In this document: piece by piece, positions 9,289 to 49,930 of the stretch
Layout of the letters: every line of letters starts with the position of its first letter
Numbering within the stretch: position 1 is the first letter of the stretch
NCBI GenBank assembly: GCA_937976375.1
Contig: CALJRU010000030.1
Location: 94,467-158,466 of the forward strand
Direction: 5' to 3'
Length of the DNA: 64,000 bases
Source: an uncultured Peptococcaceae bacterium
Lineage (GTDB): Bacteria > Bacillota > Peptococcia > Peptococcales > Peptococcaceae
Program-made: the position numbers and the translations under genes
Notes under the pieces: generated by a model
What the model was told of the DNA's origin: nothing
What the model saw: the letters and a program-made list of their open reading frames with translations, nothing else
Database searches by the model: none

Positions 9289-9291
9289 CAC

Positions 9292-10107
9292 ATGGCTGAC
9301 GCATTAACTGTATCACGCTCTAATAGTAACGGGTCGACCGTTGATATGTCGACCCTTGTTGGATCCGGTATGCAGCACTCTGTATACATTAATGAGGAAT
9401 GCATGCCTATTGCCCCGGCAAAGATTACCATCACGATTGCAAACAAAAACAAAACAGTGGATCTTGCTGCTGGCGGTGTGTATAAAGTGCTAAACATGCC
9501 CGGGCTTACATCCTATGAATTTGAGCTAATCATTCCACATGATAAGGACAGCTTACCATTCGCTGTATATCAAGATGGATTTCAGCCGCCACAGCATTAT
9601 TTTGACCTTTTTGAAAAACTCAAAACAGCTAGCGACCTGAATGACCGCGCATTCCCATTTGTTGTTGTCGATAATTCCAGCGAGCCTACATTGATATCGA
9701 CTATTGTTACATTGGAGGACTACGAGATTACGCAAGATGCCGATGAAGATGTGCTTGATTATAGGATCAACGTCAAGCTGGAAAAATATGAGAGACACGT
9801 AACACAGTCTTTCACATTAGTTGAAAATGGAGACGGCACATGGACGGCTATTGATGATGGCATGCACGACCGACTGCAGGCTGCTGCCGATGCAATGAAC
9901 GCAGCCCAAAACGCTATCAAAATGGCACAGGGCGCCGCAGCACTATCACAAAGCATGAAGACGAAGAAAAGCACAACAGTATCAGAAGCAGCTATTGAAC
10001 TGTCAAAATCTGGTAATGTGTCAGTTGCAGATATAAAGAATATCGCATCTGCGAATGGTATTAGCCCTTGTGACACGTTGCTAGCTGGGACGGTGATCCG
10101 TAAATGA
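9292..10107 (+). CDS. Phage tail protein (XkdP-like distal tail protein, putative)
   Basis: 271 aa between tape measure and the tail hydrolase. The C-terminal ~40 aa is weakly LysM-like. Confidence 0.35.
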   Translation: MADALTVSRSNSNGSTVDMSTLVGSGMQHSVYINEECMPIAPAKITITIANKNKTVDLAAGGVYKVLNMPGLTSYEFELIIPHDKDSLPFAVYQDGFQPPQHYFDLFEKLKTASDLNDRAFPFVVVDNSSEPTLISTIVTLEDYEITQDADEDVLDYRINVKLEKYERHVTQSFTLVENGDGTWTAIDDGMHDRLQAAADAMNAAQNAIKMAQGAAALSQSMKTKKSTTVSEAAIELSKSGNVSVADIKNIASANGISPCDTLLAGTVIRK

Positions 10108-18813: not shown

Positions 18814-20493
18814 TTATTGGTGTGCTGGTTGTTGAGCGCGTTCTAAGAAACGACGCTCCAAATAATGGGTGACAGCAGAGCGTGAGATGATGCCAACGAC
18901 TTTCTCGCCGTCAACAACAGGGACTTTTTTCACGCCGGCTGCGCTCAACAGCTTGCAGATGTCTTCGGATGATGTGCCAAGTGGGATGGTGATTGGCTTG
19001 TCATTGCCAATCTCGAGAACATTGAGATCCATGATATCATGCAGTTTATTTTCAAATTCTGCATGATCATTCCAGAAATAATCCATGAACATGGACGAGC
19101 TGCCGAGCGCAGCAGCAGGATAATCATCAACGCGTAAGTAACGCATGATGTCACCATCTGTGATAAAGCCTTTGGCCTTGCCATCAGAAGAAACAATTGG
19201 CGCACCACTGATGTTTTGCTTTGAGAAGAAAGCGATGGCATCGCGAACGGTGGCGTTTTCATTTAAGGAGTAAACATCACGCTTCATATACTTGTCCAGC
19301 AAGTTGATGGTGTCGGTGCTTGTTGTTGGAATGGTTCTGAGCTTGCGATAGTATCGATCAACATAAGCGGTATAAATGACTCCGCCTACCAGATAGGCGA
19401 TGGCAGTAAGGGCAAAGCCTTGTGACAGGCCAAGAGATTCTTGCATGAAGCCCATTAGGAGTGAGCCGATCCCAATACCAATATCGTAGGACAAGAGATA
19501 GGTGGCATTGGCGACGCCGCGTTTTGGTGCAGGCGTGGTGCCGGTGACGAAGGATTGAAAGAGCGGCTGCAGAATGCCATATCCTAAGCCAAAGAAGAAG
19601 CCGGCCAACAGAAGATGCGTGCCAGTTGTGAGAAATAGGTAGCTTGCCATTGTCACAATCAGCACAATGAGGCTGGCAAAGACGAGAATGTGATAGTTTC
19701 CGGCATCAATCCAGCGCTGCGTGGAAAGCTTAGACAACAGCATCCCAAGAACCAGGCAGATGTAGAAATAAGGGATGACAGACATAAGACCTTTTTCCTG
19801 TGCCAGGATGGAAGAATAAGCAATAACTGCGCCATAAGGGATCATCAAGAACATCATGTTGAACATGAATGGAAGTGCTGGCTTATAGATGGAATCTCTG
19901 AGCGCAAATTTTTTGCGTTTGATTTTAGGGTACGAGATTTTGCAGCAGGAGACACAAATCAACGCCACAACGGCAATCGCGAATACCGTTAAGAACGATG
20001 CTTTGCTGCTCATATGGTTTTGCACTTGGATGCCGACATAAGGACCAACAGCCATACCAATTGAAATGGTGAAGGCAAAGCGGCTGATGCCTTCTGTAAT
20101 TTTACCTGGAGGAAGTACGTCACTGGCCAATGTCATTGTGGCAGAGCCACATACAGAATACACAGCCCCCATATACAGACGAATGACGATGAGCGCTCCG
20201 AAAATTGGGAAGATGAGAAAGCTCGGGAACGATAAGCAAAACAGCGCTAGGAAAATAATATAGACGATATAGCGATTGAAATTGTCTAATAAATATCCAG
20301 CGATGGGACGAAATAAGATGGTGGCCACAGACATTGCGGTCAAAACGATGCCGATTTTCGACCCCGTAATGCCAATTTCCTGACAATAAATTGGAATGAT
20401 TGGAATTGAGGCGTAAAAGGCGGCTAAAACCAGCAGATTGGTGATGAAGAGCAAGATAAAGTTCTTGTTCCATATCTTTTTTGGTTTCTCCAT
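18814..20493 (-). CDS. MFS transporter fused to a C-terminal CBS-domain pair
   Basis: 559 aa. The N-terminal ~400 aa have 12 predicted TMs. The C-terminal ~150 aa have two CBS-like modules (VRDAIAFFSKQNISGAPIVSSDGKAKGFITDGDIMRY; KKVPVVDGEKVVGIISRSAV). Confidence 0.65.
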   Translation of the reverse strand: MEKPKKIWNKNFILLFITNLLVLAAFYASIPIIPIYCQEIGITGSKIGIVLTAMSVATILFRPIAGYLLDNFNRYIVYIIFLALFCLSFPSFLIFPIFGALIVIRLYMGAVYSVCGSATMTLASDVLPPGKITEGISRFAFTISIGMAVGPYVGIQVQNHMSSKASFLTVFAIAVVALICVSCCKISYPKIKRKKFALRDSIYKPALPFMFNMMFLMIPYGAVIAYSSILAQEKGLMSVIPYFYICLVLGMLLSKLSTQRWIDAGNYHILVFASLIVLIVTMASYLFLTTGTHLLLAGFFFGLGYGILQPLFQSFVTGTTPAPKRGVANATYLLSYDIGIGIGSLLMGFMQESLGLSQGFALTAIAYLVGGVIYTAYVDRYYRKLRTIPTTSTDTINLLDKYMKRDVYSLNENATVRDAIAFFSKQNISGAPIVSSDGKAKGFITDGDIMRYLRVDDYPAAALGSSSMFMDYFWNDHAEFENKLHDIMDLNVLEIGNDKPITIPLGTSSEDICKLLSAAGVKKVPVVDGEKVVGIISRSAVTHYLERRFLERAQQPAHQ

Positions 20494-21156: not shown

Positions 21157-21993
21157 ATGCGAGGCAAAGCGTTTTTTGTTTCTATCGCTATATTGACAGT
21201 CTTTCTATGGCGTATTAACATGAATTTAATACTATGTTTTATTGGTTGGGGGGCGTTTGTGATGCTGTATCCGATCATCGTTTTGGTGTCAATCATCGGG
21301 GCGTTGATTCAAGGGGTGACTGGTTTCGGTTCGTCGTTGACGATCATGACAATTTTGCCGTATTTTATGGCGCTGCCACAAGCGGTGGCCATTTCCTGCG
21401 TGATTCCGATGGCACAGATGGCGGCACTTGTTTGGATGTACCGACAAGCGATCAACTGGCGGCGCGTGTTGTTTCCGTCGCTGTTTTATCTGATTGGCTG
21501 TTGGTTGTCGATTCGGCACACACTGTCCTTTGATCCAACGACCTTGAAATTTGTTTTTGGCATTTTTTTAATTATCATAGGAATTTATTTTCTGCGGTTT
21601 AGTGAGAAGGCGAAGGTTAAGGATACCATTCTCGTCATGGTTGGCTGCAGTTTTGTATCAGGGCTGATCAATGGTTTGTTTGGCATTGGTGGTCCGTTGA
21701 TGGTGTTGTACTATATGGCGGCGTGCGATTCGATGAATGAATATATTGCCAACCTTCAGTGCTGTTTTTTAATTACAGATATTTATTGTTTGATTCTGCG
21801 CACCCAGGAGGGCATTTTTACTGCAGATCTTATTGGGCCGTCGATTGTTGGCATTGTCGTTGTACTGATTGGACAGTTTTTTGCTGCCCGTATCGTAGCG
21901 TGCATCAACAGTGAAGATATCATTCGTCATTGCACATACGTCATGGTTTGTGTGTCTGGCGTGATCATGGGACTCACCAATTTGCCGTTTTAA
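21157..21993 (+). CDS. TSUP/TauE-SafE family membrane permease (sulfite/organosulfonate exporter-like)
   Basis: 278 aa, 7-8 TMs, duplicated glycine-rich motifs GVTGFGSS and GLFGIGGPL. Start may be downstream of the ORF-track ATG. Confidence 0.55.
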   Translation: MRGKAFFVSIAILTVFLWRINMNLILCFIGWGAFVMLYPIIVLVSIIGALIQGVTGFGSSLTIMTILPYFMALPQAVAISCVIPMAQMAALVWMYRQAINWRRVLFPSLFYLIGCWLSIRHTLSFDPTTLKFVFGIFLIIIGIYFLRFSEKAKVKDTILVMVGCSFVSGLINGLFGIGGPLMVLYYMAACDSMNEYIANLQCCFLITDIYCLILRTQEGIFTADLIGPSIVGIVVVLIGQFFAARIVACINSEDIIRHCTYVMVCVSGVIMGLTNLPF

Positions 21994-22017
21994 TTGATGA
22001 AAAAAGGAGCGTGTGTG

Positions 22018-22674
22018 ATGAATTTTAAAGATTTACCAGGCATTGAACCTTGCTTTTTTAAAAAAGGGGACATCCTCATCCATGATGGCGATCGCGTGGA
22101 TTATATTTATTATCTGAGAAAAGGCACTGTTTATCGTGAAATTGTCACAGATACGGGCATTGAAAGCATTCTCTCCTGCAAGGAAGGCGGCGGCCTCACA
22201 GATTCACTCATCGGCATTCTTTTGTTGTATGGCGTTCAGCCACCGTATTTTTCAGGCAACAATTTTGTGGCTGGAACAGATTGTTATTGCCTGCGCATTC
22301 CAGTTGAAGTGATCAAGCAATTTTTGCGCAGTCAGCCAGAATTGCTGGAACAGTTGGTGGCAACCGCTGTCCATGAATGTGGGTACCTGATGAACCTTTA
22401 TCTAGGAAAAACGGAGGTGCCGGCACCGGCAGCATTATGCTCCTGGATGCTGGAGCGCTTAAAGAAAGATGAAGACGGGCAAGACTACTTACCGGCATAT
22501 CATCATGATGATATCGCGAAATTCTTGAATCTGCATAAGGTTACCGTTTCGCGCATTTTTGGTGCCTTAAAACGTGAAGGTGTTCTGGAAAAAACACCAC
22601 ACGGTTTGGTGGTGCATGATATGGAGCGTTTGCGAGAATATGCAGAGAACATCCGTCATTTGAAATACTCGTAA
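22018..22674 (+). CDS. Crp/Fnr-family transcriptional regulator
   Basis: cNMP-binding-like N-domain and C-terminal HTH (DIAKFLNLHKVTVSRIFGALKREGVL). Start at the ATG after AAGGAG. Confidence 0.7.
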   Translation: MNFKDLPGIEPCFFKKGDILIHDGDRVDYIYYLRKGTVYREIVTDTGIESILSCKEGGGLTDSLIGILLLYGVQPPYFSGNNFVAGTDCYCLRIPVEVIKQFLRSQPELLEQLVATAVHECGYLMNLYLGKTEVPAPAALCSWMLERLKKDEDGQDYLPAYHHDDIAKFLNLHKVTVSRIFGALKREGVLEKTPHGLVVHDMERLREYAENIRHLKYS

Positions 22675-22758
22675 AGAAAAGATTTGATGAAGGAATATAA
22701 TACATTTCGTTATTTTTTGATTTTAGAAAAAAATCACAGAAAAAAGTTAACCTGGGTT

Positions 22759-22779
22759 ATTGATTTCTCGTTAATCAAT
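22759..22779. promoter_or_regulatory. Inverted repeat ATTGATT-N7-AATCAAT in the AT-rich leader of the sulfotransferase-like gene
   Basis: 7-bp perfect arms with TTGAT/ATCAA half-sites like Fnr/Crp boxes, but with non-canonical spacing. About 70 nt upstream of the ATG at 22847 and just downstream of the Crp/Fnr gene. Confidence 0.35.
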
Positions 22780-22846
22780 ATATAAAATGGATTTATAAAT
22801 TGATGGTAATTAATATTGAGTAATTAATCTCTAAGGAGGAAAATTT

Positions 22847-24337
22847 ATGAGTTCAACCATCTATCCTACCGGTACTACAATCTATAATCCAGAAAAAGCA
22901 TGGAGTGGCTACACTCTGATGCCAATCGGTAAAGTCGGTGCTGTTCTGATCGACATGAACGGTAACGTTGTAAAAGTTTGGAAAGATTTCCAGGGCTTCC
23001 CTAACAAACTGCTGAAAGGCGGTTATGTATTGGGTTCTCTCGGTGTTCGTGACAGCGCATTCTCCTATCAGGATCAGACCGATCTGACTCAGCTCGACTG
23101 GGATGGTAACGTTGTTTGGAAATTCGACCACAAAGAATACATCGAAGATGAAGGCAAGCCAGCAATGTGGATGGCTCGTCAGCATCATGACTATCAGCGT
23201 GAAGGTAACCCAGTTGGTTACTATGTTCCTGGCATGGAATGCAAAACCGATGGTGGTAATACCTTGATCCTCTGCCATGAAACCATTCATGATCACAAGA
23301 TCAGTGACAAACAGCTCCTCGACGATGTATTCATCGAAGTAGACTGGGAAGGCAACATTGTTTGGGAATGGCATGTAAGTGATCACTTCCGTGAACTGGG
23401 CTTCTCTCAAGCAGCAAAGAACGTTCTCTTCCGTAACCCTAACCAGCACTTCACCCAGAATGGTGAACTTGGTGACTGGATGCACATCAACTCCATGAGC
23501 TATCTTGGGCCTAACAAATGGTACGATGCTGGTGATGAACGTTTCAAACCAGACAACATCATCTGGGATGCTCGTGAAGCAAACATCCTTGCAATCATCG
23601 ACAAAGAAACCGGTAAGATCGTTTGGAAACTTGGTCCAGACTTCACTGAAACCAAGGAAATGCGTCGCATCGGTCAGATCATTGGTCAGCATCATGTTCA
23701 CATGATTCCAAAAGGCCTGCCAGGCGAAGGTAACATCCTTATCTTCGATAACGGTGGCTGGGCTGGTTATGGTCTGCCTGACCGCATGAGCGTTGATGGT
23801 ACGAAGGTTGATATTCGTGACCACAGCCGTATTCTTGAAATCGATCCTGTAACTCTCAAGGTTGTTTGGAGCTACGTTGGTGGCGATACTCACAAAGGTG
23901 CAATGGGCGCATTCATTACTAACACCAGATTCTACAGCCAGCTGATCAGTGCTGCACAGCGTCTGCCTAATGGTAACACCATGATCACCGAAGGTTGCTG
24001 CTCCAGAATCTTTGAAGTAACCCCAGACAAAGAAGTTGTATGGGAATACATCGCTCCATTCAATAAGGAAAGCGAAGGCATGTTTGTATATCGTGCATAT
24101 CGTTATCCATACGATTATGTACCACAGCTCGACACTCCAGAAGAAGTACCTGTAGAACCACTCGATATCACGACCTTCCGTGTTCCAGGTGCTGCTGAAG
24201 GTATGCTCCAGAACTTCACCGAAGTTCCTGAAGCTCTCGGCTACACTTCTGAAATGGCAGCTTGCGTAACCGATGACCAGATCGATGATGCTGCAGAAGC
24301 TGATCCAGATGATGAAGTAACCGGCGCTAAATTCTAA
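22847..24337 (+). CDS. Aryl-sulfate sulfotransferase (ASST)-like beta-propeller protein, cytoplasmic (no signal peptide)
   Basis: 496 aa with repeated W/G-rich blades (VVWKF, IVWEW, IVWKL, VVWSY, VVWEY) and several His clusters, as in ASST-family propellers. Strong RBS AAGGAGG. Codon usage is conspicuously uniform (GGT, CTG, CGT, AAC). Confidence 0.45.
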   Translation: MSSTIYPTGTTIYNPEKAWSGYTLMPIGKVGAVLIDMNGNVVKVWKDFQGFPNKLLKGGYVLGSLGVRDSAFSYQDQTDLTQLDWDGNVVWKFDHKEYIEDEGKPAMWMARQHHDYQREGNPVGYYVPGMECKTDGGNTLILCHETIHDHKISDKQLLDDVFIEVDWEGNIVWEWHVSDHFRELGFSQAAKNVLFRNPNQHFTQNGELGDWMHINSMSYLGPNKWYDAGDERFKPDNIIWDAREANILAIIDKETGKIVWKLGPDFTETKEMRRIGQIIGQHHVHMIPKGLPGEGNILIFDNGGWAGYGLPDRMSVDGTKVDIRDHSRILEIDPVTLKVVWSYVGGDTHKGAMGAFITNTRFYSQLISAAQRLPNGNTMITEGCCSRIFEVTPDKEVVWEYIAPFNKESEGMFVYRAYRYPYDYVPQLDTPEEVPVEPLDITTFRVPGAAEGMLQNFTEVPEALGYTSEMAACVTDDQIDDAAEADPDDEVTGAKF

Positions 24338-24356
24338 TTATAAATTGTGTACCATC

Positions 24357-24386
24357 GACCACCTCATCATGAGGTGGTCTTTTTTG
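24357..24386 (+). terminator. Rho-independent terminator
   Basis: GACCACCTCATCATGAGGTGGTC followed by TTTTTTG. Confidence 0.75.
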
Positions 24387-24460
24387 TTGGAAAAATAATC
24401 TTTTGAAACGTTGGTTGTGACATGATATGATGGAGTGAAGAATAAGAGGAAGGATGAAGA

Positions 24461-25432
24461 ATGATGAAGATGGTTGTATTGGACGGCTATACCCTGAATC
24501 CAGGTGATTTAGACTGGCGTGTATTAGATTCTTTTGGCTCCTTGACGGTGTATCCGTCGTCGCAATATATGGACGAAGCGGAACAGATTGCACGCATTGG
24601 TGATGCAGAAATTTTGTTTGTGAATAAAACAAAAATCACCGAACGCATCTTGGCAGCATGTCCAAAGGTGCATTATATTGGTGAATTGGCTACGGGCTTT
24701 GATAACATAGATGTTGATGCTGCTCGACGTCATGGTGTTGCCTTGACCAATGTTCCGGACTATGGCGGCATCGCAGTGGCCCAGCATACGATGGCGTTGC
24801 TCTTGGAACTGGCCAATCGTACCTGTGCCATGCATGAGCGTGTGCTGCGTGGCGAGTGGACCAGCGAAATCATTCCGGAAAAGGGTCAATGGCAGATGGA
24901 GATGACCGAGCTTGCTGGCAAAACCATTGGCTTTGTTGGTTATGGCACCATCGCTATTTATGCAGCGCGCATGGCACGTGCCTTCGGTATGCGGACCTTA
25001 GGCTATTCTCGCCGTGAACGGCCGGAAGGACGAGAAGTGGCAGAATACGTCGATCTGGACACGCTGCTTAGAGAAAGTGATGTTGTCAGTTTGCACATGC
25101 CACTTAATGAGGGGTCCTACCAGATCATCAATCGTGAATCTTTGGCGAAGATGAAACAAGGGGCTTTTTTGATCAACACGGCGCGTGGGGCGCTTGTCGA
25201 TGAAGCGGCACTGATTGAAGCCATGGACAGTGGAAAAGTGGCGGGCTTTGCCAGTGACGTTATGGTGAAGGAGCCGTTTGACATGAACCATCCGCTGGTA
25301 GGACGCGACAACGTTGTGCTGACGCCGCATATTGCTTGGGGCCCACGGGCTACACGGGCTCGCCTGTTGGATACAGTGGTCAGCAATTTGCAGGCGTATC
25401 TCAATGGTGAAGAAGTGAACCGCATCTGCTGA
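24461..25432 (+). CDS. D-isomer-specific 2-hydroxyacid dehydrogenase (glycerate dehydrogenase/hydroxypyruvate reductase-like)
   Basis: 323 aa. NAD-binding GFVGYGTIAIYAARMARAFGM. Catalytic region NTARG...D...H pattern. Confidence 0.75.
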   Translation: MMKMVVLDGYTLNPGDLDWRVLDSFGSLTVYPSSQYMDEAEQIARIGDAEILFVNKTKITERILAACPKVHYIGELATGFDNIDVDAARRHGVALTNVPDYGGIAVAQHTMALLLELANRTCAMHERVLRGEWTSEIIPEKGQWQMEMTELAGKTIGFVGYGTIAIYAARMARAFGMRTLGYSRRERPEGREVAEYVDLDTLLRESDVVSLHMPLNEGSYQIINRESLAKMKQGAFLINTARGALVDEAALIEAMDSGKVAGFASDVMVKEPFDMNHPLVGRDNVVLTPHIAWGPRATRARLLDTVVSNLQAYLNGEEVNRIC

Positions 25433-40971: not shown

Positions 40972-41015
40972 ATATCTCGTCGGCTGGCAAGGTTGCTTGA
41001 AACCGACAAGCCTTT

Positions 41016-41098
41016 GGAGGGATACCCAAGTTGGCCAAAGGGGACGGACTGTAAATCCGTTAGCTGTGCTTTCACAGGTTCGAATCCTGTTCCCTCCA
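41016..41098 (+). tRNA. tRNA-Tyr (GUA)
   Basis: GGAGGGA acceptor, anticodon loop CUGUAAA, long variable arm, T arm GGTTCGAATCC. Confidence 0.85.
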
Positions 41099-41107
41099 TT
41101 AAAATGC

Positions 41108-41180
41108 CGCGGGGTGGAGCAGTTGGCAGCTCGTCGGGCTCATAACCCGAAGGTCGCAGGTTCAAGTCCTGTCCCCGCAA
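41108..41180 (+). tRNA. Initiator tRNA-fMet (CAU)
   Basis: CGCGGGG...GGGCTCATAACCC...CCCCGCAA with a 1:72 mismatch and three G-C pairs in the anticodon stem. Confidence 0.85.
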
Positions 41181-41185
41181 TTTTT

Positions 41186-41258
41186 GCTGATATAGCTCAG
41201 TCGGTAGAGCGCCACCTTGGTAAGGTGGAGGTCACCAGTTCAAATCTGGTTATCAGCT
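41186..41258 (+). tRNA. tRNA-Thr (GGU)
   Basis: Anticodon loop UUGGUAA. Confidence 0.8.
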
Positions 41259-41261
41259 TAT

Positions 41262-41335
41262 GGCGATATAGCTCAGCTGGCTAGAGCATACGGTTCATAC
41301 CCGTAGTGTCCGGGGTTCAAGTCCCTGTATCGCCA
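41262..41335 (+). tRNA. Elongator tRNA-Met (CAU)
   Basis: GGCGATATAGCTCAGCTGGCTAGAGCATACGGTTCATACCCGT...; close to Bacillus elongator Met. Confidence 0.8.
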
Positions 41336-41337
41336 TC

Positions 41338-41551: not shown

Positions 41552-42484
41552 CATATGCAGCTCAATCAGTTTAAGTTTCTTATTGCGGTAGACAAATATG
41601 GGTCAATTTCGAAAGCAGCACAAGAGTTGTATATTTCTCAGTCAACGATCAGTCTTTCATTGATCAATCTGGAAGAGGAATTGGGCTATGTGTTGTTAAA
41701 CCGCAGTAAACGCGGTGTGACATTCACGCCGGAAGGCAAAGAGGTATTAAAGCGTGCCTATGAGATTCAGAATGTGCTGGACAGCTTAAAAGATATCACC
41801 GGCAGCTCTGAAGAAATCATTGGCGAAGTGCGCATCGCCAGCAACAGTCACCTGGGCATGAATATTATTACTGATACAATGCTGCAATTAAAACATCAGT
41901 ATGAAGGCATTCGTGTTTATGCACAACGTGATGATGTTAAGGCAGTGCTGAAAAAAGTGGCGCAAAATGAGTTGGATATGGGATTTATCACTTATCATTC
42001 ATTGGCGGCGCTGGATGTGCAAAATGACTTGAAGCGCTTACATTTGGAATTTCATAAAACCTATTTTGATAAGCAAGCGGTTTGTACACGTAAGGACCAC
42101 CCGCTGACCAAGCTTCCAGAAGTTTATTTTGAAGATGTTGCACGCTATGAACGGGTGACGATGGTGACCAAAAAAGATCCATTTTTAACACAAAATTTTG
42201 GCGTAAAAGACAGTGATATTTCTATTGTAACGTTGGTTGACGTGTTAAATTTGCGCAAATATGCCACGCAAACCGATGCGGTGGTCATTTTGCCAAAAAA
42301 TGAAGCGCTGAGGAGCAATGAAATGTTTCCTTATAAGCTGACGGTGCTCGATGTGAAGGATTTTGATGTGGACATTGTTGGTGGGTGGGTACACCATAGC
42401 ACGCATGAAATGAATGCTGCAGAACAATGTGTGGCACAGGCTATTGAAAACATTTGCCAAAGCTATTCAGAAATGACGCTATAG
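41552..42484 (+). CDS. LysR-family transcriptional regulator
   Basis: MQLNQFKFLIAVDKYGSISKAAQELYISQSTISLSLINLEEELG HTH; about 310 aa. Confidence 0.75.
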   Translation, partial: HMQLNQFKFLIAVDKYGSISKAAQELYISQSTISLSLINLEEELGYVLLNRSKRGVTFTPEGKEVLKRAYEIQNVLDSLKDITGSSEEIIGEVRIASNSHLGMNIITDTMLQLKHQYEGIRVYAQRDDVKAVLKKVAQNELDMGFITYHSLAALDVQNDLKRLHLEFHKTYFDKQAVCTRKDHPLTKLPEVYFEDVARYERVTMVTKKDPFLTQNFGVKDSDISIVTLVDVLNLRKYATQTDAVVILPKNEALRSNEMFPYKLTVLDVKDFDVDIVGGWVHHSTHEMNAAEQCVAQAIENICQSYSEMTL

Positions 42485-42494
42485 TGACGATCAG

Positions 42495-42531
42495 AAGGCT
42501 GTACGTATTTTGTGATACGTATAGCCTTTTT
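42495..42531 (+). terminator. Hairpin terminator after the LysR gene
   Basis: AAGGCTGTACGTAT-TTTGTG-ATACGTATAGCCTT followed by TTTAT. Confidence 0.55.
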
Positions 42532-42725
42532 ATTATTGACAAAAATCATGAAAAGAAAGGATTGTTATATTTTTTCTTAATGATAAATATTGATAAACTA
42601 GGCTTTTAGAAACCATAAGCTGGATATATCATAAAGGCGTGGAAAGAAATCACGTATGAGTTGATGGCCATCAAAATTTTACGTGAAACTCTGGAAAGGA
42701 AAATAACCGCAAAGGAGAGGTTAAT

Positions 42726-44180
42726 ATGTCAGAGGCAGTAAAAAAGAAAAATACGATGTATTACATTAACTCTATTATTACATTAGTTATTATTTTTGGT
42801 TTTGGTCAACTTCCTGCGGCTGCACCACTGACGCCGCTTGGAATGAATCTGATTGGGATTTTCTTAGGGCTGTTATATGGTTGGATTTTTGTTGATATTG
42901 TTTGGCCAAGTATGGCCGGGTTATTGGCGCTGATGCTTATTGGCGGCATGGCACCAAAAGTTGTACTTAATTCGAGCTTCGGTGATCCAATCGTCGTTAT
43001 GATGTTCTTTATTTTTATCTTCTGTGCAGCGATTGATCAATATGGTTTGTCCCGTTTTATTTCGCTGTGGTTCATCACTCGTAAGTTCGTACAAGGTAAG
43101 CCATGGGCGTTCACCTTTGTTTTTCTGGTTTCTATTTTTATCCTCGGCGGTCTCACTAGTGCATCTCCTGCAGCGTTGATTGGCTGGGCAATCCTCTATG
43201 CAATCTGTGACCTTTGTGGCTACAAGAAAGGTGATGGCTATCCAACAATGATGGTCTTCGCAATTGTTTTTGCAGCACAGGTTGGGATGTCCATGATTCC
43301 ATTCAAGCAAGTTCCACTGACTGTTCTTGGTGCATTTTCCAATATTTCTGGCACCAACATTGACTATGCAAAATATATGGTCATTGCCATTGCATGCTGC
43401 GTTGTATGTGCGGTTCTCCTATTGTTTGTTTGCAAATTTATCTTCCGTCCTGATGTTTCTAAACTGGTTGATCTCGATGCGACTCAGCTCGATAAGACTG
43501 GTGACGGTCTTGTTCTTACAAAAGTCCAGAAGATCGTTCTTGGTTTCTTGGTTGCACTTGTACTTTGCTTGCTCCTTCCAAGCTTCTTGCCAAAGAATTT
43601 CTTCTTAACCCAGTTCCTTAATGGTATCGGCAGCACTGGTGTGTGCGTATTTATCGTTGCAGTTATGTGCTTCATTAAAGTCGATGGCAAACCACTCCTG
43701 AAGATTAAAAAAGCCATTGATGGCGGTGTTGCTTGGGGTATTATTTTCCTGCTTGCAGCTGTTCAGCCACTCTCCACAGCAATGACTGCAGATGAAAGTG
43801 GTATCACTGAATGGCTGATGGGCATTCTGAATCCAATCTTCGGCGGTAAGAGCCCAATCTTCTTCATGGTTGTTATTGGTCTTATTGCAGCACTTCTTAC
43901 CAACGTTATGAACAACGGTGCGCTCGGTGTTGCACTCATGCCTATTGTTTACAGCTATTGCATGTCCAATGGCGTTGATCCACAATTGTCCGTTATCATC
44001 ATTGTAATGTGCGTACACTTGGCATTCCTTACGCCAGCAGCCAGCTCCAGTGCATCTCTGCTGCATGGGAATGAATGGGTAACCACCAAGGATATCATGA
44101 AATCTGCAACACCGGTTGTCATCTTATCATGGGTTGCAGTAACAGTCATTACCATTGCTATCGGTTCACTTATTTTCTAA
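42726..44180 (+). CDS. Polytopic permease (anion/organic-acid transporter; ArsB/NhaD-DASS-like superfamily, putative)
   Basis: 484 aa, about 12-13 TMs, glycine-rich re-entrant-like segments. RBS AAGGAGAGG. Confidence 0.45.
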   Translation: MSEAVKKKNTMYYINSIITLVIIFGFGQLPAAAPLTPLGMNLIGIFLGLLYGWIFVDIVWPSMAGLLALMLIGGMAPKVVLNSSFGDPIVVMMFFIFIFCAAIDQYGLSRFISLWFITRKFVQGKPWAFTFVFLVSIFILGGLTSASPAALIGWAILYAICDLCGYKKGDGYPTMMVFAIVFAAQVGMSMIPFKQVPLTVLGAFSNISGTNIDYAKYMVIAIACCVVCAVLLLFVCKFIFRPDVSKLVDLDATQLDKTGDGLVLTKVQKIVLGFLVALVLCLLLPSFLPKNFFLTQFLNGIGSTGVCVFIVAVMCFIKVDGKPLLKIKKAIDGGVAWGIIFLLAAVQPLSTAMTADESGITEWLMGILNPIFGGKSPIFFMVVIGLIAALLTNVMNNGALGVALMPIVYSYCMSNGVDPQLSVIIIVMCVHLAFLTPAASSSASLLHGNEWVTTKDIMKSATPVVILSWVAVTVITIAIGSLIF

Positions 44181-44228
44181 ATAGACTCCTTAAATTAGCA
44201 AAAATTTTTCAGAAAGAGGTGTTGGCGT

Positions 44229-44492
44229 ATGCCACCAATCATTGACAAAGAAAAATGTATTGAATGCGGAACCTGTGCGCAGATCTGCCCATTGGACGTT
44301 ATCCGCTTTGCGAAGAACGAAGAAGGGAAGAAGATCGTTGTTGTGAAGTATCCTTACGAATGCTGGCACTGCCGTGCATGCGTAAAGGACTGCCCTAAGG
44401 GTGCAATTTCGATGCGTTATCCATTGTCACACATGATGTTCACCATGGATGTTCCGGAAGAAAAGCTCGCAAAAGAAAGAGGTGCTGAATAA
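44229..44492 (+). CDS. 2x[4Fe-4S] ferredoxin (copy 1)
   Basis: 87 aa. CIECGTCAQICP and CWHCRACVKDCP motifs. Stop overlaps the downstream ATG (TAATG). Confidence 0.7.
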   Translation: MPPIIDKEKCIECGTCAQICPLDVIRFAKNEEGKKIVVVKYPYECWHCRACVKDCPKGAISMRYPLSHMMFTMDVPEEKLAKERGAE

Positions 44493-46168
44493 TGGATGTC
44501 AAGGTTCGCGACGAAATCATTAAAACAGAATACTTAATCATCGGCGGTGGTGTTGCAGGCTTAATGGCTGCCATCACAGCAGCAAGCAAAGGCGTCGATG
44601 TTCTCATTGCTGAAAAAGCAGATACTCGCCGTTCTGGTTCTGGTTGCGGCGGTAACGACCACTTCATGTGCTATATTCCAGAATGCCACGGAGACGATTT
44701 TGACCGTGTCATCTCAGAAATCAACGAAGGCATGGAAGGCGGCCCATGGCAGGATCAAGCCATGCTGCGCAAGATGATGCTGCGCACCCAGAGCGTTGTA
44801 GAACGCTGGGAAAAATGGGGCGTTAACATGAAGCCTACTGGCAAATACCACTTTGAAGGACATACCATGCCATCCCGCCAGTGCTATCATCTGAAATACG
44901 ATGGCGCCAACCAGAAACGTGTATTGACCAACGAAGCACGTAAAAACGGCGCGAAGATCATGAATAAACTTTTCATCAACGACATCCTGACCAATGATGA
45001 AGGCCGTGCGGTTGGTGCAATTGGGTTCATCCTTGCAGATGACGAACCAGAAGTGGTTGTTATCCAGGCAAAAGCTGTGCTCGTAGCGACAGCTCAAGCC
45101 ATGCGCATGTATCCAAACGTTAACCCAGCCTACATCTTTAACACCCATAGCTGCCCAGCAGCAGCCGGCGGTGCTGCCATCGCTTATCGTGCAGGTGCAA
45201 AGCTGGTTAACATCGATGTTCCATATCGTCATGCTGGTGTCAAAGGCTTTGCCCGTAGTGGTAAGGCAACCTGGTTTGGCGTTATCAGTGACATCAACGG
45301 CGACTCCATCAGCCCATTCTGCGACAAACCAGACCGTAAGCGCGGTGATGCGCTCATGGATATCAACCCAGGTATCTTTACCAAACGCCTTGAAAGTGCA
45401 ACCGGCCCAACCTTCATGAACTGCACCGGTTACAGCGAAGAAGACCACGCTTATCAGCATCAGCAGTTCAAATGCGAAGGCATCGACTCCATCACCGACT
45501 ACCTCGACCAGCGTGGTGTAGATTTGCATAAGAGCATGGTAGAATTTGGTACCTATGACTATTCTTTGGCACAGCGCGGCATTGATATCGGCCTTGATGC
45601 AAGCACCAACGTACCAGGCATTTATGCAGCTGGTATTGTTTGCGGCAACGTACGCGGCAACATCACTAGTGCTTCTGTCTGGGGCGATGTAGCTGGTGAA
45701 TCTGTGGCGGAATATGTAAAGACCGTTGACGAATATGATGTATCTGGGCATCCAGACATTCAGAAACACATTGATTTCTACAATAAACTGATGAATAGAG
45801 AGAACGGTGCATACTGGCTCGAAGCAAACTCCACCCTGCAAGTCATCATGAACGACTATGTTGGTCTGAAACTGCGCAGCGAAGATATGATGCGTGCTGG
45901 TATCAAGTATCTGGATGATTTGAAAGCCTATGCACAATCTGACATCGGCTGTGAAGATGCACATCAGCTCATGCGCACCATGGAACTTTTCGACCTTATT
46001 GATCTTGCCAAGGCTGTTGCCATTACTTCACGCAACCGTAAAGAAAGCCGCGGCAACCATAAGCGTATCGATTATGACTATACCAATCCATTGCTGAATA
46101 ACATGTTCCAGACCATTCATCTTGATAAGAATGGTGAAGTGGTATTGGAATGGCGTAAGAGAATATAA
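44492..46168 (+). CDS. FAD-dependent oxidoreductase of the succinate dehydrogenase/fumarate reductase/AprA flavoprotein family (copy 1)
   Basis: 558 aa. N-terminal dinucleotide fold IIGGGVAGLMAAITAA. C-terminal ESRGNHKRIDYDYTNP resembles the FrdA/SdhA H-x-R-x-D(Y/F)P active-site motif. Confidence 0.65.
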   Translation: MDVKVRDEIIKTEYLIIGGGVAGLMAAITAASKGVDVLIAEKADTRRSGSGCGGNDHFMCYIPECHGDDFDRVISEINEGMEGGPWQDQAMLRKMMLRTQSVVERWEKWGVNMKPTGKYHFEGHTMPSRQCYHLKYDGANQKRVLTNEARKNGAKIMNKLFINDILTNDEGRAVGAIGFILADDEPEVVVIQAKAVLVATAQAMRMYPNVNPAYIFNTHSCPAAAGGAAIAYRAGAKLVNIDVPYRHAGVKGFARSGKATWFGVISDINGDSISPFCDKPDRKRGDALMDINPGIFTKRLESATGPTFMNCTGYSEEDHAYQHQQFKCEGIDSITDYLDQRGVDLHKSMVEFGTYDYSLAQRGIDIGLDASTNVPGIYAAGIVCGNVRGNITSASVWGDVAGESVAEYVKTVDEYDVSGHPDIQKHIDFYNKLMNRENGAYWLEANSTLQVIMNDYVGLKLRSEDMMRAGIKYLDDLKAYAQSDIGCEDAHQLMRTMELFDLIDLAKAVAITSRNRKESRGNHKRIDYDYTNPLLNNMFQTIHLDKNGEVVLEWRKRI

Positions 46169-46188
46169 GATACTGTGGCTGACTGATG

Positions 46189-46230
46189 CATTGTCCATGG
46201 AAAGTCTTTCCATGGACAATGTCTTTATTG
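46189..46230 (+). terminator. 33-nt perfect palindrome (two CCATGG cores) plus T-rich tract between the two ferredoxin-flavoprotein pairs
   Basis: CATTGTCCATGGAAAG-T-CTTTCCATGGACAATG followed by TCTTTATTG. Confidence 0.55.
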
Positions 46231-46245
46231 AAGGAGGACTGCGCG

Positions 46246-46458
46246 ATGATTCAATCCATTGATCAAGAAAAATGTATTGGCTGCGGCACCTGTGTTGAAA
46301 TTTGTCCGTTGGACACCATTCGTCTCGATGAAAACGGCAAAGCTTTCATCGCTTATGGAGATGACTGCATGACCTGTTTCAAATGTGAACGTCTTTGCCC
46401 GGCAGGAGCGATCTTTGTGCATCCGTTCAAAGAAGCGCTGCCTATGGCGTTTGAGTGA
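46246..46458 (+). CDS. 2x[4Fe-4S] ferredoxin (copy 2)
   Basis: 70 aa from the ATG after GGAGGA. CIGCGTCVEICP and CMTCFKCERLCP. The ORF-track N-terminal extension crosses the palindrome and is spurious. Confidence 0.7.
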   Translation: MIQSIDQEKCIGCGTCVEICPLDTIRLDENGKAFIAYGDDCMTCFKCERLCPAGAIFVHPFKEALPMAFE

Positions 46459-46472
46459 GTGGAGGTGCTGTT

Positions 46473-48218
46473 ATGGAAACAACGAACGTAAAAGACATTC
46501 GTCTGAAAACCGATGTATTGATCATCGGTGGAGGGTCTGCTGGACTTTGGGCGGCAGATCATGCCAAAGAACTGGATCCCTCTCTTGATGTGCTTGTTGT
46601 AGATAAAGGGCCTGCCGATTGGGGCGGCCTCATGTCCATGTCCGGCGGCGATTTTGATGTGATACTGCCAGACGAAAATATTGACGACTGGGTGGAAGAC
46701 CTTGTGTACTATTACGATGGCCTTTGCAATCAGGAGCTGGTAGAATCGCTGCTGTCTCAATCCTACGCGCGTATGCAGGATTATGAACGCCTCGGCTGCC
46801 GATTCTTCCGCAAAGAAGATGGATCTTTGAAGGGCATCCCACAGCGTGGCTTGCCTCATGTAAAGCTCTACCCTGCGCAATACAAGGGCAAAGGCGGCGA
46901 GGATATGGCGCGCAATCTTATCAAAGAAGTGAAAGAGCGCGGGGTCAAACGCCTTGGCCGCATTTTGATCACAGACCTTCTCAAAGATGGAGAACGTGTT
47001 GTTGGTGCGGTAGGCTTTGACTCAAGAAGCGGAGATTTTTATGTTATTGAAGCGCGTGCCGTCATTTTAGCAACCGGATGGACCGGATGGAAGACTTCCT
47101 ATGGGAAAAATACCACCACTGGGGAAGGCGCTGAATTGGCATTTAAAGCTGGCGCAAAGCTCAGCAATTTTGAATTTGGCCGTGTTTGGAACGTGCCAAA
47201 GCTCTTTGGCTGGGAAGGTCAGACGGCACTGTTTCCATTGGGTGCGAAAGTGGTCAATGGCATTGGTGAACCGCTGATGGATCCATATTCTCCAGTGCTT
47301 GGTGCGAATACCGACCCACATTTTACGACGCTGGCGATGGCTGTTGAACACCGTAAGGGCAATGGTCCATTCTATCTTGACATTAGTGCCGTCAATCCAG
47401 ACGACTTAGTTCTGCTGAAACCTCAAGATGGCTGGCAAAAACTGAACTATGACAAACTCTGTGACCTTGGCATCGACATGTTCAAGGAAAACAGTGAATG
47501 GATTCCACAGCTGACCTGCGGCTTTGGTGGCGTTGAAGCAGACCTCGATGGTTATACTGGCGTGCCGGGACTTTATGCAGCCGGTACTTCACGCAGCTTG
47601 GACCCTGGTGTATACATGGGTGGTTTCGCGCTCGAAACGACGGCTTCTGGCGGTTATATGACAGGTGAAGCGGTGGTGAAAGCATTACAAGATTTGACGC
47701 AAGGCGAGCTCGATGAAGCTGTTATTGCCGAAAAGAAAGCGGCTTTGTACGCGCAAATTGGTGATGATGGGCTTATGCCGCATGACGTGCTGCGTGCTAT
47801 TCAGGAAATATTGTTCCCTTACGAAGTCTCCATTATTAAAAGTGAACGTTCGCTGAATGAAGCGCTTGATAAACTTCAGCAAGTCCAAAAAGACATGCTG
47901 CCACGTATGAAGGCAAAAGATCCGCACTATCTGTTAAAACTTATTGAAGTACAGGGTATATCCTTTATCAGTGAGCTGTATTTGCGTGCATCTTTGCAGC
48001 GTAAAGAATCCCGTGCAGGACATTTCCGCGAAGATTATCCAACCCGCAATAATGACGACTTCCTTGCTTGGATTGTAGCTGAACAGGATGGCGACGATGG
48101 TATTGCATTCTCAAAGAAAGCAGTACCAGTGGAACGTTATAAACATAAAATCGATAAATATTATTCCGATAACTTTACGTTTTCCAAGCTTTTTTCCGAA
48201 CAAAAGGATAATCAGTAA
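46473..48218 (+). CDS. FAD-dependent oxidoreductase of the SdhA/FrdA/AprA flavoprotein family (copy 2, diverged paralog)
   Basis: 581 aa. IIGGGSAGLWAADHA Rossmann motif. C-terminal ESRAGHFREDYPTRNND. Start at the ATG after GGAGG (or GTG 46455). Confidence 0.65.
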   Translation: METTNVKDIRLKTDVLIIGGGSAGLWAADHAKELDPSLDVLVVDKGPADWGGLMSMSGGDFDVILPDENIDDWVEDLVYYYDGLCNQELVESLLSQSYARMQDYERLGCRFFRKEDGSLKGIPQRGLPHVKLYPAQYKGKGGEDMARNLIKEVKERGVKRLGRILITDLLKDGERVVGAVGFDSRSGDFYVIEARAVILATGWTGWKTSYGKNTTTGEGAELAFKAGAKLSNFEFGRVWNVPKLFGWEGQTALFPLGAKVVNGIGEPLMDPYSPVLGANTDPHFTTLAMAVEHRKGNGPFYLDISAVNPDDLVLLKPQDGWQKLNYDKLCDLGIDMFKENSEWIPQLTCGFGGVEADLDGYTGVPGLYAAGTSRSLDPGVYMGGFALETTASGGYMTGEAVVKALQDLTQGELDEAVIAEKKAALYAQIGDDGLMPHDVLRAIQEILFPYEVSIIKSERSLNEALDKLQQVQKDMLPRMKAKDPHYLLKLIEVQGISFISELYLRASLQRKESRAGHFREDYPTRNNDDFLAWIVAEQDGDDGIAFSKKAVPVERYKHKIDKYYSDNFTFSKLFSEQKDNQ

Positions 48219-48586: not shown

Positions 48587-48985
48587 GTGGATTTTAAGAA
48601 ACTGCTCAAAAAATACGAAGAACAATGGCATTATTTGATTGTTGGATGTGGCACCACACTCATCAACTATGTGCTTTATTTTTTGCTTAATTTTCTTGGC
48701 ATGCAATACATTGCCAGTAATATTTTGGCATGGGTTGGTGCCGTTGCTTTTGCCTATTTTGCCAATGGTGCTTGGGTATATCGTTCCACATCACGGCGGA
48801 GCATACGGGAGGCGACAGCTTTTGTAATTTCTCGTTTGTTTTCGCTGGGACTTGAAACAGTGCTTTTAGTGTTGATTGTGGAATGGGCGGGCATTGGTGA
48901 GTATTTGGCAAAGATTGTTGTGGGTGTCATTGTTGTGGTGGTTAATTATTTAACTGGCCTGCTGGTATATAAGAAGGGAGTGTGA
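48587..48985 (+). CDS. gtrA: GtrA-family membrane protein (lipid-linked sugar flippase)
   Basis: 132 aa, 4 TMs. GTG start after GGAGGTGGA. Confidence 0.65.
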   Translation: MDFKKLLKKYEEQWHYLIVGCGTTLINYVLYFLLNFLGMQYIASNILAWVGAVAFAYFANGAWVYRSTSRRSIREATAFVISRLFSLGLETVLLVLIVEWAGIGEYLAKIVVGVIVVVVNYLTGLLVYKKGV

Positions 48986-49930
48986 GTGATGCTGTCAGTG
49001 ATTGTACCTGCCTATAATGAGGAAGGTTTGGTGCTTGCAGCGGCTCAGCGCTTGCATGAGGTGCTGGCAGGTGCGGACATTCCATATGAAGTCATTTTTG
49101 TCGATGATGGTTCCCGTGATCGCACTTGGAATGAAATCGACATGGCGCATCAAAACTTTCCTGATGTCAGAGGTTTGCGTTTTTCGCGTAATTTTGGCAA
49201 GGAAGCGGCTATTTTTGCGGGCTTGGGTGCCGCAGAGGGTGAATGCTGCGCGGTGATTGATTGTGATCTTCAGCATCCGCCGGAAAAGCTCGTAGAGATG
49301 TATGCTTTGTGGCAGGATGGTTGGGAAGTGGTTAATGGCGTGAAGGAAGACCGTGGAGAAGAAAGTGCAGCACACGGTTTCGCTGCCAAATGTTTCTACA
49401 AGCTCATGAGTCGTGCCGCAAAGATCGATATGAGCCATTCCTCTGATTTTAAGCTGATGGACCGACGCGTGGTCAATGCTTTGCTCGCATTACCGGAGCG
49501 CAAGACATTCTTCCGCGCTCTGGTTGGCTGGGTAGGATTTCGCTCGATTGATGTGCCGTTTTCAGTAGAAGAACGGACAACAGGAACCAGTCACTTTTCA
49601 ACACTGTCATTGATTCGTTACGCACTTTCGAACATTTCTGCGTTTTCATCGGCACCGATGCAGATTGTTACTGTGATCGGCGGTATTTTTCTCCTTTTGG
49701 CAATCGCGCTCAGCGTTCAGACCTTGGTGTTGTGGGCCAGTGGCAATGCTGCCGATGGATTCACGACGGTGATCATTTTATTGCTGTTAATTGGCAGTAT
49801 CATCATGATCAGTTTGGGCATCATCGGTTATTATATCGCACAGATTTATATAGAGAGCAAAGAACGCCCGCGGTATCTTGTCGCACAAACCTGTGAGCAA
49901 ATGCCGAAGAAGGGAGGAGAAAAACAATGA
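48986..49930 (+). CDS. gtrB: GT2 glycosyltransferase, bactoprenol/undecaprenyl-phosphate glucosyltransferase (GtrB-like)
   Basis: MMLSVIVPAYNEEG...FVDDGSRD...DCDLQHPP (DXD). Two C-terminal TMs. Confidence 0.8.
   Translation: MMLSVIVPAYNEEGLVLAAAQRLHEVLAGADIPYEVIFVDDGSRDRTWNEIDMAHQNFPDVRGLRFSRNFGKEAAIFAGLGAAEGECCAVIDCDLQHPPEKLVEMYALWQDGWEVVNGVKEDRGEESAAHGFAAKCFYKLMSRAAKIDMSHSSDFKLMDRRVVNALLALPERKTFFRALVGWVGFRSIDVPFSVEERTTGTSHFSTLSLIRYALSNISAFSSAPMQIVTVIGGIFLLLAIALSVQTLVLWASGNAADGFTTVIILLLLIGSIIMISLGIIGYYIAQIYIESKERPRYLVAQTCEQMPKKGGEKQ

Follow-up and report, generated by a model that had tools for sequence, protein, structure and literature searches.

The question raised by this locus is which reaction is catalysed by two flavoproteins of the fumarate reductase/adenosine 5'-phosphosulfate (APS) reductase type that are encoded in tandem, each behind a small ferredoxin-like protein, together with a permease and a LysR-family regulator. 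The locus is located in a 64,000-nucleotide stretch of the genome of an uncultured human-gut Peptococcaceae bacterium (contig CALJRU010000030.1, positions 94,467 to 158,466; hereafter, the window, in which all positions are given). An open reading frame (ORF) check found the six genes at the positions given by the original prediction, which was made from the DNA alone and proposed an uncharacterised system of ferredoxins and FrdA/AprA-superfamily flavoproteins with a permease and a LysR regulator; domain content and family placement bore this proposal out. On balance, it is probable that the cassette is responsible for the cytoplasmic reduction of an imported organic anion, a carboxylate or a sulfonate, by two flavo-iron-sulfur enzymes.

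Family placement and active sites of F1 and F2

The first pair is represented by the genes Fd1 (44229..44492, forward strand), encoding a 2x[4Fe-4S] ferredoxin-like protein of 87 aa with domains Fer4 and Fer4_7, and F1 (44492..46168, forward strand), encoding a flavin adenine dinucleotide (FAD)-dependent flavoprotein of 558 aa with the FrdA/AprA fold. The second pair is represented by Fd2 (46246..46458, forward strand), encoding a 2x[4Fe-4S] ferredoxin-like protein of 70 aa with domains Fer4 and Fer4_21, and F2 (46473..48218, forward strand), encoding a FAD flavoprotein of 581 aa that belongs to a clade other than that of F1. The ferredoxin-like protein would be the beta subunit and the flavoprotein the alpha subunit of each complex. 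Both ferredoxins contain two CxxCxxCxxxCP motifs (Fer4, E=1e-12 to 1e-13), and both flavoproteins contain the domains FAD_binding_2 (E=5e-20 in F1 and 3e-34 in F2) and Succ_DH_flav_C; these strong Pfam matches identify real genes and exclude chance ORFs. The stop codon of Fd1 and the start codon of F1 overlap in TAATG, and the gap of 14 nt between Fd2 and F2 contains a ribosome-binding site, GGAGG. The ATG start of F2 at 46473 is supported, because a 99%-identical database protein is also 581 aa long.

No curated NCBIfam cut-off was reached by F1 or F2. The best scores were obtained with PRK08275 (197 bits for F1 and 221 bits for F2 versus a cut-off of 587), followed by the AprA-like model PRK06854 (PRK06854.1-2; 153 and 140 versus 557, about a quarter of the cut-off) and the FrdA/SdhA model TIGR01812 (137 and 153 versus 567). 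Scores for F1 and F2 were 77 and 144 bits with the FrdA model (cut-off 933), 68.3 and 136.7 bits with nadB TIGR00551 (cut-off 452.75), and 56.7 and 65.7 bits with aprA TIGR02061 (cut-off 641.75). The TcuA model PRK08274 gave 36.6 bits for F1 versus a cut-off of 369 and was absent from the 25 best families listed for F2, no TcuB-like gene was found at the locus, and the TfrA model scored far under its cut-off for both proteins. Orthology to a characterised enzyme, which the original prediction had proposed to check, was thus not found, the cut-offs for NadB, TcuA, FrdA/SdhA and AprA being missed by a factor of at least three.

The closest sequence in the PDB for both flavoproteins is 8a8o_A (E=1e-30 for F1 and 6e-30 for F2), although the identity is only 22-25%. 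It is the alpha subunit of the reductase of 3'-phosphoadenosine 5'-phosphosulfate (PAPS) from Methanothermococcus thermolithotrophicus, MtPAPSR, an APS-reductase-like heterotetramer with an alpha subunit of 571 aa and a beta subunit of 104 aa (8A8O; Jespersen et al. 2023, PMC10322725). The AlphaFold model of F1 (pLDDT 86.5, pTM 0.90) has its best fold match in the same chain (TM 0.84/0.85, 23% identity), followed by FrdA/SdhA and AprA (TM ~0.80). Similar to the window pairs, MtPAPSR combines a compact FAD alpha subunit of the fumarate-reductase fold with a small 2x[4Fe-4S] beta subunit, is soluble and cytoplasmic, and falls into the same size class. Accordingly, the statement that AprBA, with its larger subunits, is the only known ferredoxin-flavoprotein heterodimer of the superfamily has to be dropped, since MtPAPSR is both of comparable size and the best sequence and fold match, and 'AprAB-like' complexes are also known in Clostridia, Negativicutes and Deltaproteobacteria (DiSCo paper, PMC8477390).

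In an SdhA-rooted neighbour-joining tree, which is rough, star-like, without support values and suitable for coarse placement only, the AprA/PAPSR clade nests within the radiation containing F1 and F2, while F1 and F2 themselves lie outside the PAPSR clade, in separate clades. The identity between F1 and F2 is 23% (E=1e-29), and between Fd1 and Fd2 it is 52%. The two pairs are therefore as diverged as had been predicted; their origin in an old duplication is not supported, because F1 and F2 represent separate widespread clades that also occur alone, and the locus joins two subfamilies instead of carrying a local tandem duplicate. The whole radiation includes 2,877 representatives at 50% identity (E<=1e-3). 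Close relatives are labelled in databases as 'succinate dehydrogenase/fumarate reductase flavoprotein subunit', and the label 'FAD-binding protein' is also used within the radiation. The Desulfitobacterium genome paper noted just 19 unexplained FrdA paralogues, and the exact sequence of F1 had no match in the contig index.

Catalytic residues were compared in an L-INS-i alignment of F1, F2 and both clades with Archaeoglobus fulgidus AprA (2FJA), MtPAPSR (8A8O) and M. smegmatis SdhA, the references being taken from PDB alignments. The AprA residues N74, W234, R265, R317 and H398 (A. fulgidus numbering) correspond to M, H, G, N and a gap in F1 and to D, a gap, V, F and a gap in F2, and these substitutions and deletions hold throughout both clades; in contrast, MtPAPSR shares N74, W234/W206, R265/R237, R317 and H398 with AprA. 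The histidine of covalent FAD attachment in SdhA/FrdA (RSHT) is substituted or deleted in F1 and F2, as are the arginine of RGEGG, the proton-donor arginine of APRD, the histidine of HYxMGG and the arginine of GANRLG. At the FHPT position (FrdA-H232), the histidine is kept in F1 only (H247), while F2 has Trp. The H/R/H/R set shared with NadB is lost as well. The proposed check of the covalent-FAD histidine and the substrate-binding residues thus showed that the sets known from FrdA/SdhA and AprA are lost, with the exception of H247 of F1.

The C-terminal motif described in the original prediction as an active-site motif is indeed present (ESRGNHKRIDY and ESRAGHFREDY), but RKESRGxHxRxDY is conserved across the entire radiation and in SdhA; ESRGxHxRxDY is a signature of the C-terminal domain of the superfamily and not a substrate site. 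Each clade has invariant motifs of its own. In the F1 clade these are EKADTRRSGxGxxGNDHFxCYIPExHG, YHLKxDG, CPA, HAGxKxFARxGKxTW and GNVRG, which are rich in basic residues, with R46, R47, H57, H124, K135, K142, R255 and K258 as invariant basic residues of the active-site loops. The F2 clade is characterised by DKGPxDWGGLxxMxGGDF, YYxDGLCxQ, PQRGLxHxKLYP, GWKxSY, VWNxPxxFxWEGQT, NTDPH, GWQ and PGVYxGGFAL. F1 and F2 appear to possess different, clade-specific active sites, and the pocket of F1 is predicted to be strongly basic. As far as sequence can tell, neither F1 nor F2 is an APS/PAPS reductase, a fumarate reductase, an aspartate oxidase or a tricarballylate dehydrogenase.

Ferredoxin subunits and electron input

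Fd1 was aligned from residue 1 with the beta subunit of PAPS reductase (8a8o_C, E=8e-10) and with AprB (1jnr_B, E=1e-7), and Fd2 matched 8a8o_C at E=4e-9. The alignments of Fd1 and Fd2 with AprB cover residues 1-66 and 5-73 of the latter; the C-terminal segment of AprB is absent. In sequence, both are generic 2x[4Fe-4S] ferredoxins; among single-domain proteins, their alignments with the PAPSR beta subunit and AprB begin at the N-terminus. The second cluster motif of Fd1 contains Trp in C-W-H-C, at the position of the electron-transfer Trp of AprB (CWEC), and Fd2 has Met there. Fd2 ends in a conserved tail, FVHPFKEALPMA, and is 80% identical to the ferredoxin encoded upstream of a Desulfovibrionaceae F2 orthologue.

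The ferredoxin partnership is kept in homologous loci. A ferredoxin ORF was found no more than 420 nt upstream of 89 of the 95 F1/F2-type genes in 78 genome loci, and among 80 metagenome loci a ferredoxin-like sequence was detected no more than 4 kb from F2 in all but one of the 70 with enough upstream sequence (69/70). In high-GC Desulfovibrionaceae contigs, neighbours were detected by tblastn, since antisense ORFs masked the genes for ORF calling. Given a conserved partnership and no characterised orthologue, neither of the two findings that the original prediction had named as speaking against it was made.

The combination of an alpha subunit with a small iron-sulfur protein is shared with several known systems. 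AprBA (1JNR, 2FJA, 3GYX) is likewise an alpha-beta flavo-iron-sulfur heterodimer in which two [4Fe-4S] clusters lead to FAD. It differs in the length of AprA (643 aa; its capping and helical domains contain insertions), in AprB, which has 150 aa and a tail wrapping around AprA, whereas the window proteins have 87 and 70 aa, and in genomic context, since sat and qmoABC (or aprM) were not found near the window locus. Unlike MtPAPSR-type systems, the window loci have no sat, APS kinase or 3'-phosphoadenosine 5'-phosphate phosphatase genes nearby, their neighbours being an anion permease and LysR. The 'AprAB-like' complexes are similar in that AprB-like is cut to the ferredoxin domain, AprA-like has gaps in the capping and helical domains, the taxa are similar, and transporters of the Na:sulfate-symporter and NitT/TauT types are encoded nearby; they differ in being set among sat, cysDC and asrABC, with a proposed role in sulfur assimilation (PMC8477390), whereas F1/F2 loci do not contain those genes. 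In FrdA/SdhA the partner FrdB/SdhB contains [2Fe-2S], [4Fe-4S] and [3Fe-4S] clusters, in contrast to the 70-87-aa 2x[4Fe-4S] ferredoxins of the window.

The likely source of electrons is indicated by a subset of F2-type loci (loci of relatives are designated by L numbers). In several of them, including L092 and loci of Desulfovibrionaceae, the adjacent gene encodes a GltD/NfnB-like NAD(P)H oxidoreductase (Fer4_20 and Pyr_redox_2). The Chloroflexota genome GCA_042575805.1 encodes a protein of 536 aa (L093:1505-3115), directly upstream of the F2 orthologue gene, in which an Fd2-type ferredoxin is split in two by an inserted GltD-like module; its halves, residues 1-28 and 486-536, are each 57% identical to Fd2, and the second includes the tail FVHPFKEILPMA. 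The same arrangement, split into two ORFs, was found in L092:5319-6961. Overall, a GltD-like gene is present no more than 4 kb from F2 in 17 of the 41 loci with enough upstream sequence, many of these being replicates of one Desulfovibrionaceae species. The insertion and adjacency of GltD show Fd2 to be a dedicated subunit rather than a free ferredoxin, and identify NAD(P)H as the source of electrons in these lineages; they point to a reductase fed with electrons via ferredoxin.

The same logic operates in GltD-dependent flavoenzymes, namely the NADH-dependent soluble fumarate reductase of Hydrogenobacter and dihydropyrimidine dehydrogenase PreTA, in which a GltD-like NAD(P)H:Fe-S module passes electrons to [4Fe-4S] clusters and on to a second flavin, where a C=C bond is reduced. 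The F2-type loci L093, L092 and L090 are arranged in that way; the catalytic subunits of the known enzymes belong to another subfamily, and the window operon differs by having no GltD-like gene. In two Desulfovibrionaceae loci (L007:3532-6932 and L090:2659-6147), an extra module of two genes, controlled by a divergent LysR, was observed upstream of the F2 pair. One product is a FAD_binding_2 protein of 555 aa that lacks the C-terminal domain; the other is GltD-like, has 563 aa and carries a 2x[4Fe-4S] domain at its C-terminus. The module may represent a second, NAD(P)H-linked type of reductase.

Transport, regulation and distribution

The permease gene (42726..44180, forward strand) encodes a predicted anion permease of the DASS/CitMHS type (ion-transporter superfamily) of 484 aa. 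Its score with Pfam CitMHS is 95.8 bits versus a cut-off of 31.9 (E=3.6e-27), while with the curated DASS model TIGR00785 it is 95.6 bits versus a cut-off of 198.6; the protein is not a curated member of DASS and is therefore regarded as a distant member of the ion-transporter superfamily. It presumably imports the substrate. No signal sequence was seen at the N-termini of the flavoproteins and ferredoxins when the translations were inspected by eye, with no predictor used; enzymes of this kind would be cytoplasmic and need an importer.

The gene lysR (41552..42484, forward strand) encodes a LysR-family regulator of 310 aa (HTH_1, E=2e-18; LysR_substrate, E=2e-11) that did not reach any NCBIfam equivalog cut-off and is presumed to be a substrate-responsive activator of the downstream operon. 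It is followed by a terminator-like hairpin (42493..42530, forward strand; terminator scan and sequence reading) with a 17-bp stem and a T-run, which indicates that lysR forms its own transcription unit. A second hairpin, with a perfect 16-bp stem and a T-rich tail (46188..46222, forward strand; terminator scan), is located between F1 and Fd2. Related strains retain a stem-loop at this position, and in two of them, L015 and L017, its stem differs in sequence. This hairpin may be an internal attenuator, a partial terminator or an mRNA-stability element, splitting the operon into two expression units.

Homologues of the window permease are the commonest neighbours of the pairs (46 genes in 40 of the 78 genome loci), and LysR genes were found in 37 of these loci (38 genes). 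Crp regulators are also common beside the pairs, and other neighbours encode DASS/Na_sulph_symp, MatC-like, GntP, MFS, TRAP and SsuA-type ABC transporters. Transporter neighbours of these types point to organic anions as the substrates.

Identical gene order, with 99% identity, was found in the metagenome-assembled genomes (MAGs) DOME_MAG_11354 and HRGM_Genome_3247 of human-gut Peptococcaceae. Single MAGs of this group contain at least 6-10 F1-type copies on different contigs. In the same MAGs as the window locus, a second Fd1-F1 pair, 88-91% identical (L018:7832-10832 and L055:8635-11674), has its own LysR (56% identical) and no adjacent permease or F2; it is a recent within-genome paralogue. 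Three pairs are present in one locus of Desulfitobacterium dichloroeliminans and five in Moorella sulfitireducens, and the radiation also occurs in Lachnospiraceae, Oscillospiraceae, Megasphaera, Desulfovibrionaceae, Desulfitobacterium and Moorella.

A Fd1-F1 pair 83% and 76% identical to the Peptococcaceae pair was found in Curtanaerobium respiraculi (L025, NZ_JANIPD030000002.1, 8241-11668), an actinobacterium of the family Eggerthellaceae, which suggests, judging by these identities, a recent horizontal transfer. The adjacent DASS-type permease gene of this genome is broken into three frames.

Two Peptococcales MAGs (L010 and L026) contain an orthologous double pair, ~70% identical, preceded in the operon by genes for LysR, an AcrC-like acyl-CoA dehydrogenase (ACAD), EtfB, a Fer4-EtfA protein and a CoA-transferase of the Pct/FadX type. 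The AcrABC-like enoyl-CoA reductase/electron-transfer flavoprotein (ETF) genes together with CoA-transferase place the double pair in the reductive metabolism of short-chain organic acids in these genomes. ETF and ACAD as general partners of the system were rejected: the apparent 'EtfA' matches in many loci covered the Fer4 domain only, and genuine ACAD, ETF and CoA-transferase genes were found only in L010 (=L057) and L026.

In the window, the cassette is located between a tRNA array, with four tRNA genes (Tyr, Met, Thr, Met) at 41015-41337, directly upstream of lysR, and cell-envelope genes. The downstream flank presumably encodes a GtrA-like protein (48587-48985), a GT2 glycosyltransferase (48986-49930) and a 520-aa membrane protein, as assigned by eye, with no family search. 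Strains L012-L014 and L024 have the same flanks around the cassette. A gene at 18814-20493 on the reverse strand, similar to F1 in size only, encodes an unrelated 559-aa MFS transporter fused to a tandem CBS domain.

Direction of the reaction and nature of the substrate

The proposed cassette would function as follows. The LysR protein would sense an anionic organic compound and switch the operon on, and the DASS/CitMHS-type permease would bring the anion into the cell, where two soluble cytoplasmic alpha-beta flavo-iron-sulfur enzymes would transform it. The small 2x[4Fe-4S] beta subunit would act as an electron wire to the FAD of the ~560-580-aa alpha subunit, with electrons entering via beta, the donor being either reduced ferredoxin or a separate module that oxidises NAD(P)H. 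Catalysis is inferred to run in the reductive direction: the anion bound in the remodelled pocket, most probably a carboxylate with or without a sulfonate group, would be reduced by two electrons from FAD. F1 and F2 may serve one pathway, acting there on different bonds or intermediates, or may each have a substrate of their own, the two being related.

An alternative is sulfur chemistry of the AprA type, in which one or both enzymes would release sulfite from a sulfonated or sulfated organic anion, or transfer it, by way of an adduct at FAD-N5 (reductive desulfonation or desulfation), or else would reduce another sulfur oxyanion. The nearest characterised relatives of the flavoproteins are PAPS and APS reductases, and the genomic context offers further points in its favour. 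Genes of a SsuBCA-like ABC transporter are located directly downstream of an F1-type pair in L028:2123-4733, L064:11691-14391 and L075:11685-14303, the F1 protein of L028 being 68% identical to that of the window, and two SsuA-family binding proteins scored just over the cut-off of the aliphatic sulfonate model TIGR01728 (165 and 164 bits versus 163.5). YeiH-family 'putative sulfate exporter' genes adjoin pairs in L073, L089 and L092, so that, together with the SsuA-family transporters, a sulfonate may still be the substrate. DASS covers Na+/sulfate symporters, and F2 homologues are frequently found in taxa that reduce sulfite (Desulfovibrionaceae, Moorella sulfitireducens, Desulfitobacterium). 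However, SsuA/NitT and DASS families are not sulfur-specific, and F1 homologues are frequent in Lachnospiraceae and Oscillospiraceae, which are not known to be sulfite respirers. No ATP-sulfurylase motif was found by simple sequence motifs in 169 loci (L001-L089, L094-L173), which, together with the loss of all five AprA residues in both clades, is evidence against APS or PAPS as a substrate. Sulfur chemistry of this type is accordingly considered unlikely.

Genes for a TauE/SafE permease and an arylsulfotransferase are also present in the window, and the original prediction had connected the locus with them. This connection was given up: the two genes, at 21157-24337, lie ~17 kb away, beyond housekeeping genes. 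They belong to a cluster (21157-25432) encoding a TauE/SafE-family permease, a Crp/Fnr regulator, an arylsulfotransferase (ASST, 496 aa) and a D-2-hydroxyacid dehydrogenase, which shows neither adjacency to nor co-conservation with the reductase locus and is probably a separate aryl-sulfate module.

The enzymes could instead be oxidative catabolic dehydrogenases, oxidising an imported saturated, hydroxy or amino acid and handing the electrons to ferredoxin or NAD(P)+ by way of the ferredoxin subunit. The set of LysR, flavoprotein, Fe-S partner and permease is the established gene logic of tcuRABC of Salmonella, which shares with the window a LysR regulator, a FAD_binding_2 flavoprotein, an Fe-S electron-transfer partner and its own carboxylate permease; SdhA, NadB and TcuA of the same superfamily are all oxidative, and GltD-like partners are able to reduce NAD(P)+, although here only their association was seen. 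TcuRABC differs in that TcuA belongs to another subfamily, as the score of F1 with its model shows, TcuB is a membrane Fe-S/haem protein, and the process is oxidative and quinone-linked, whereas no quinone-linked membrane anchor is encoded in the window locus. Dehydrogenation of a C-C bond (E0' ~0 mV) cannot reduce low-potential 2x[4Fe-4S] clusters or NAD(P)+ without coupling, and the companion genes of L010 and L026 are reductive. The probability of an oxidative role is thus rated as low, similar to that of sulfur chemistry.

That F1 and F2 are a mis-scored ordinary enzyme, namely a soluble fumarate reductase, an L-aspartate oxidase or an assimilatory APS/PAPS reductase of the clostridial 'AprAB-like' type, is highly improbable: public records use the name of the succinate dehydrogenase/fumarate reductase flavoprotein subunit, and a role in sulfur assimilation has been suggested for AprAB-like complexes whose genes adjoin those of Na:sulfate symporters and NitT/TauT ABC transporters (PMC8477390), but the scores are far under all curated cut-offs (PRK06854, nadB, FrdA), the defining catalytic residues are missing save H247 of F1, no sat, cysC or cysD is encoded nearby, and a strong match to a named family was found for only ~5 of the 86 nearest 50%-identity representatives (NCBIfam scan of 86 sequences).

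Several points also weigh against the preferred reading, cytoplasmic reduction of an imported organic anion. The active-site assignments come from alignments with 20-25% identity, and the active-site loops 41-60, 201-220 and 250-260 of the F1 AlphaFold model have low confidence. No electron-donor gene, including a GltD-like gene, was found in the window, so the donor here is presumably ferredoxin or an unlinked module, and GltD-type modules and 2x[4Fe-4S] wires are reversible in principle. No ACAD or ETF gene is present in the window. F2 accompanies F1 orthologues in ~10 loci and is missing beside them in L027, L028 and L018/L055, which shows that a two-step pathway is not required. No characterised member of the family was found in the literature on APS reductase-like ferredoxin flavoproteins, trans-aconitate/tricarballylate reductase and clostridial AprA.

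More specifically, F1 and F2 may catalyse reaction types new to the AprA-like radiation, for example, a flavin-N5-mediated reductive cleavage of C-S bonds in sulfonates or the reduction of other anions of the host or diet, with an arsenal of such cytoplasmic cassettes in Peptococcaceae; this is a speculative proposal with a small chance of being correct. A counterpart is provided by gut Eggerthellaceae, Erysipelotrichaceae and Burkholderiaceae, whose respiratory 'flavin reductase' arsenals comprise many FAD_binding_2 paralogues per genome, each with its own regulator and substrate-induced; urocanate, itaconate and cinnamates are examples of the dietary or host organic acids used (Little et al., bioRxiv 10.1101/2022.12.26.521950). 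Those enzymes are secreted, with signal peptides, are tied to a membrane electron-transport chain and have no ferredoxin partner (10.1101/2022.12.26.521950), whereas the window-type cassettes are predicted to be cytoplasmic, are paired with ferredoxin and are accompanied by importers. Ferredoxin, Peptococcaceae and LysR are unmentioned in that survey, which covered secreted enzymes only (10.1101/2022.12.26.521950).

The architecture of the system is known from AprBA and MtPAPSR; the clades, their active sites and the organisation into cassettes with importer and regulator are uncharacterised. The locus neatly exemplifies a very large radiation, more than 90% of whose nearest representatives belong to no named family, in which the APS/PAPS-reductase architecture is combined with remodelled active sites, dedicated importers and dedicated regulators, and which is amplified to many copies in human-gut Peptococcaceae. 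The layout of LysR, importer and enzyme makes the question of the substrate testable by inducer and substrate screening, and cultured carriers include Desulfitobacterium dichloroeliminans, Moorella sulfitireducens, Catenibacillus scindens, Curtanaerobium respiraculi and Peptococcus simiae. Knowing the substrates would extend models of gut metabolism by electron sinks or catabolic routes for organic anions from diet and host, would correct the widespread mis-annotation as 'fumarate reductase' and would show in what way the AprA scaffold has been re-used. If the enzymes do catalyse new reactions, the at least 6-10 ferredoxin- or NAD(P)H-driven cassettes per genome would form a so far unrecognised arsenal inside the cell, matching the secreted ones of Eggerthella and Sutterella.

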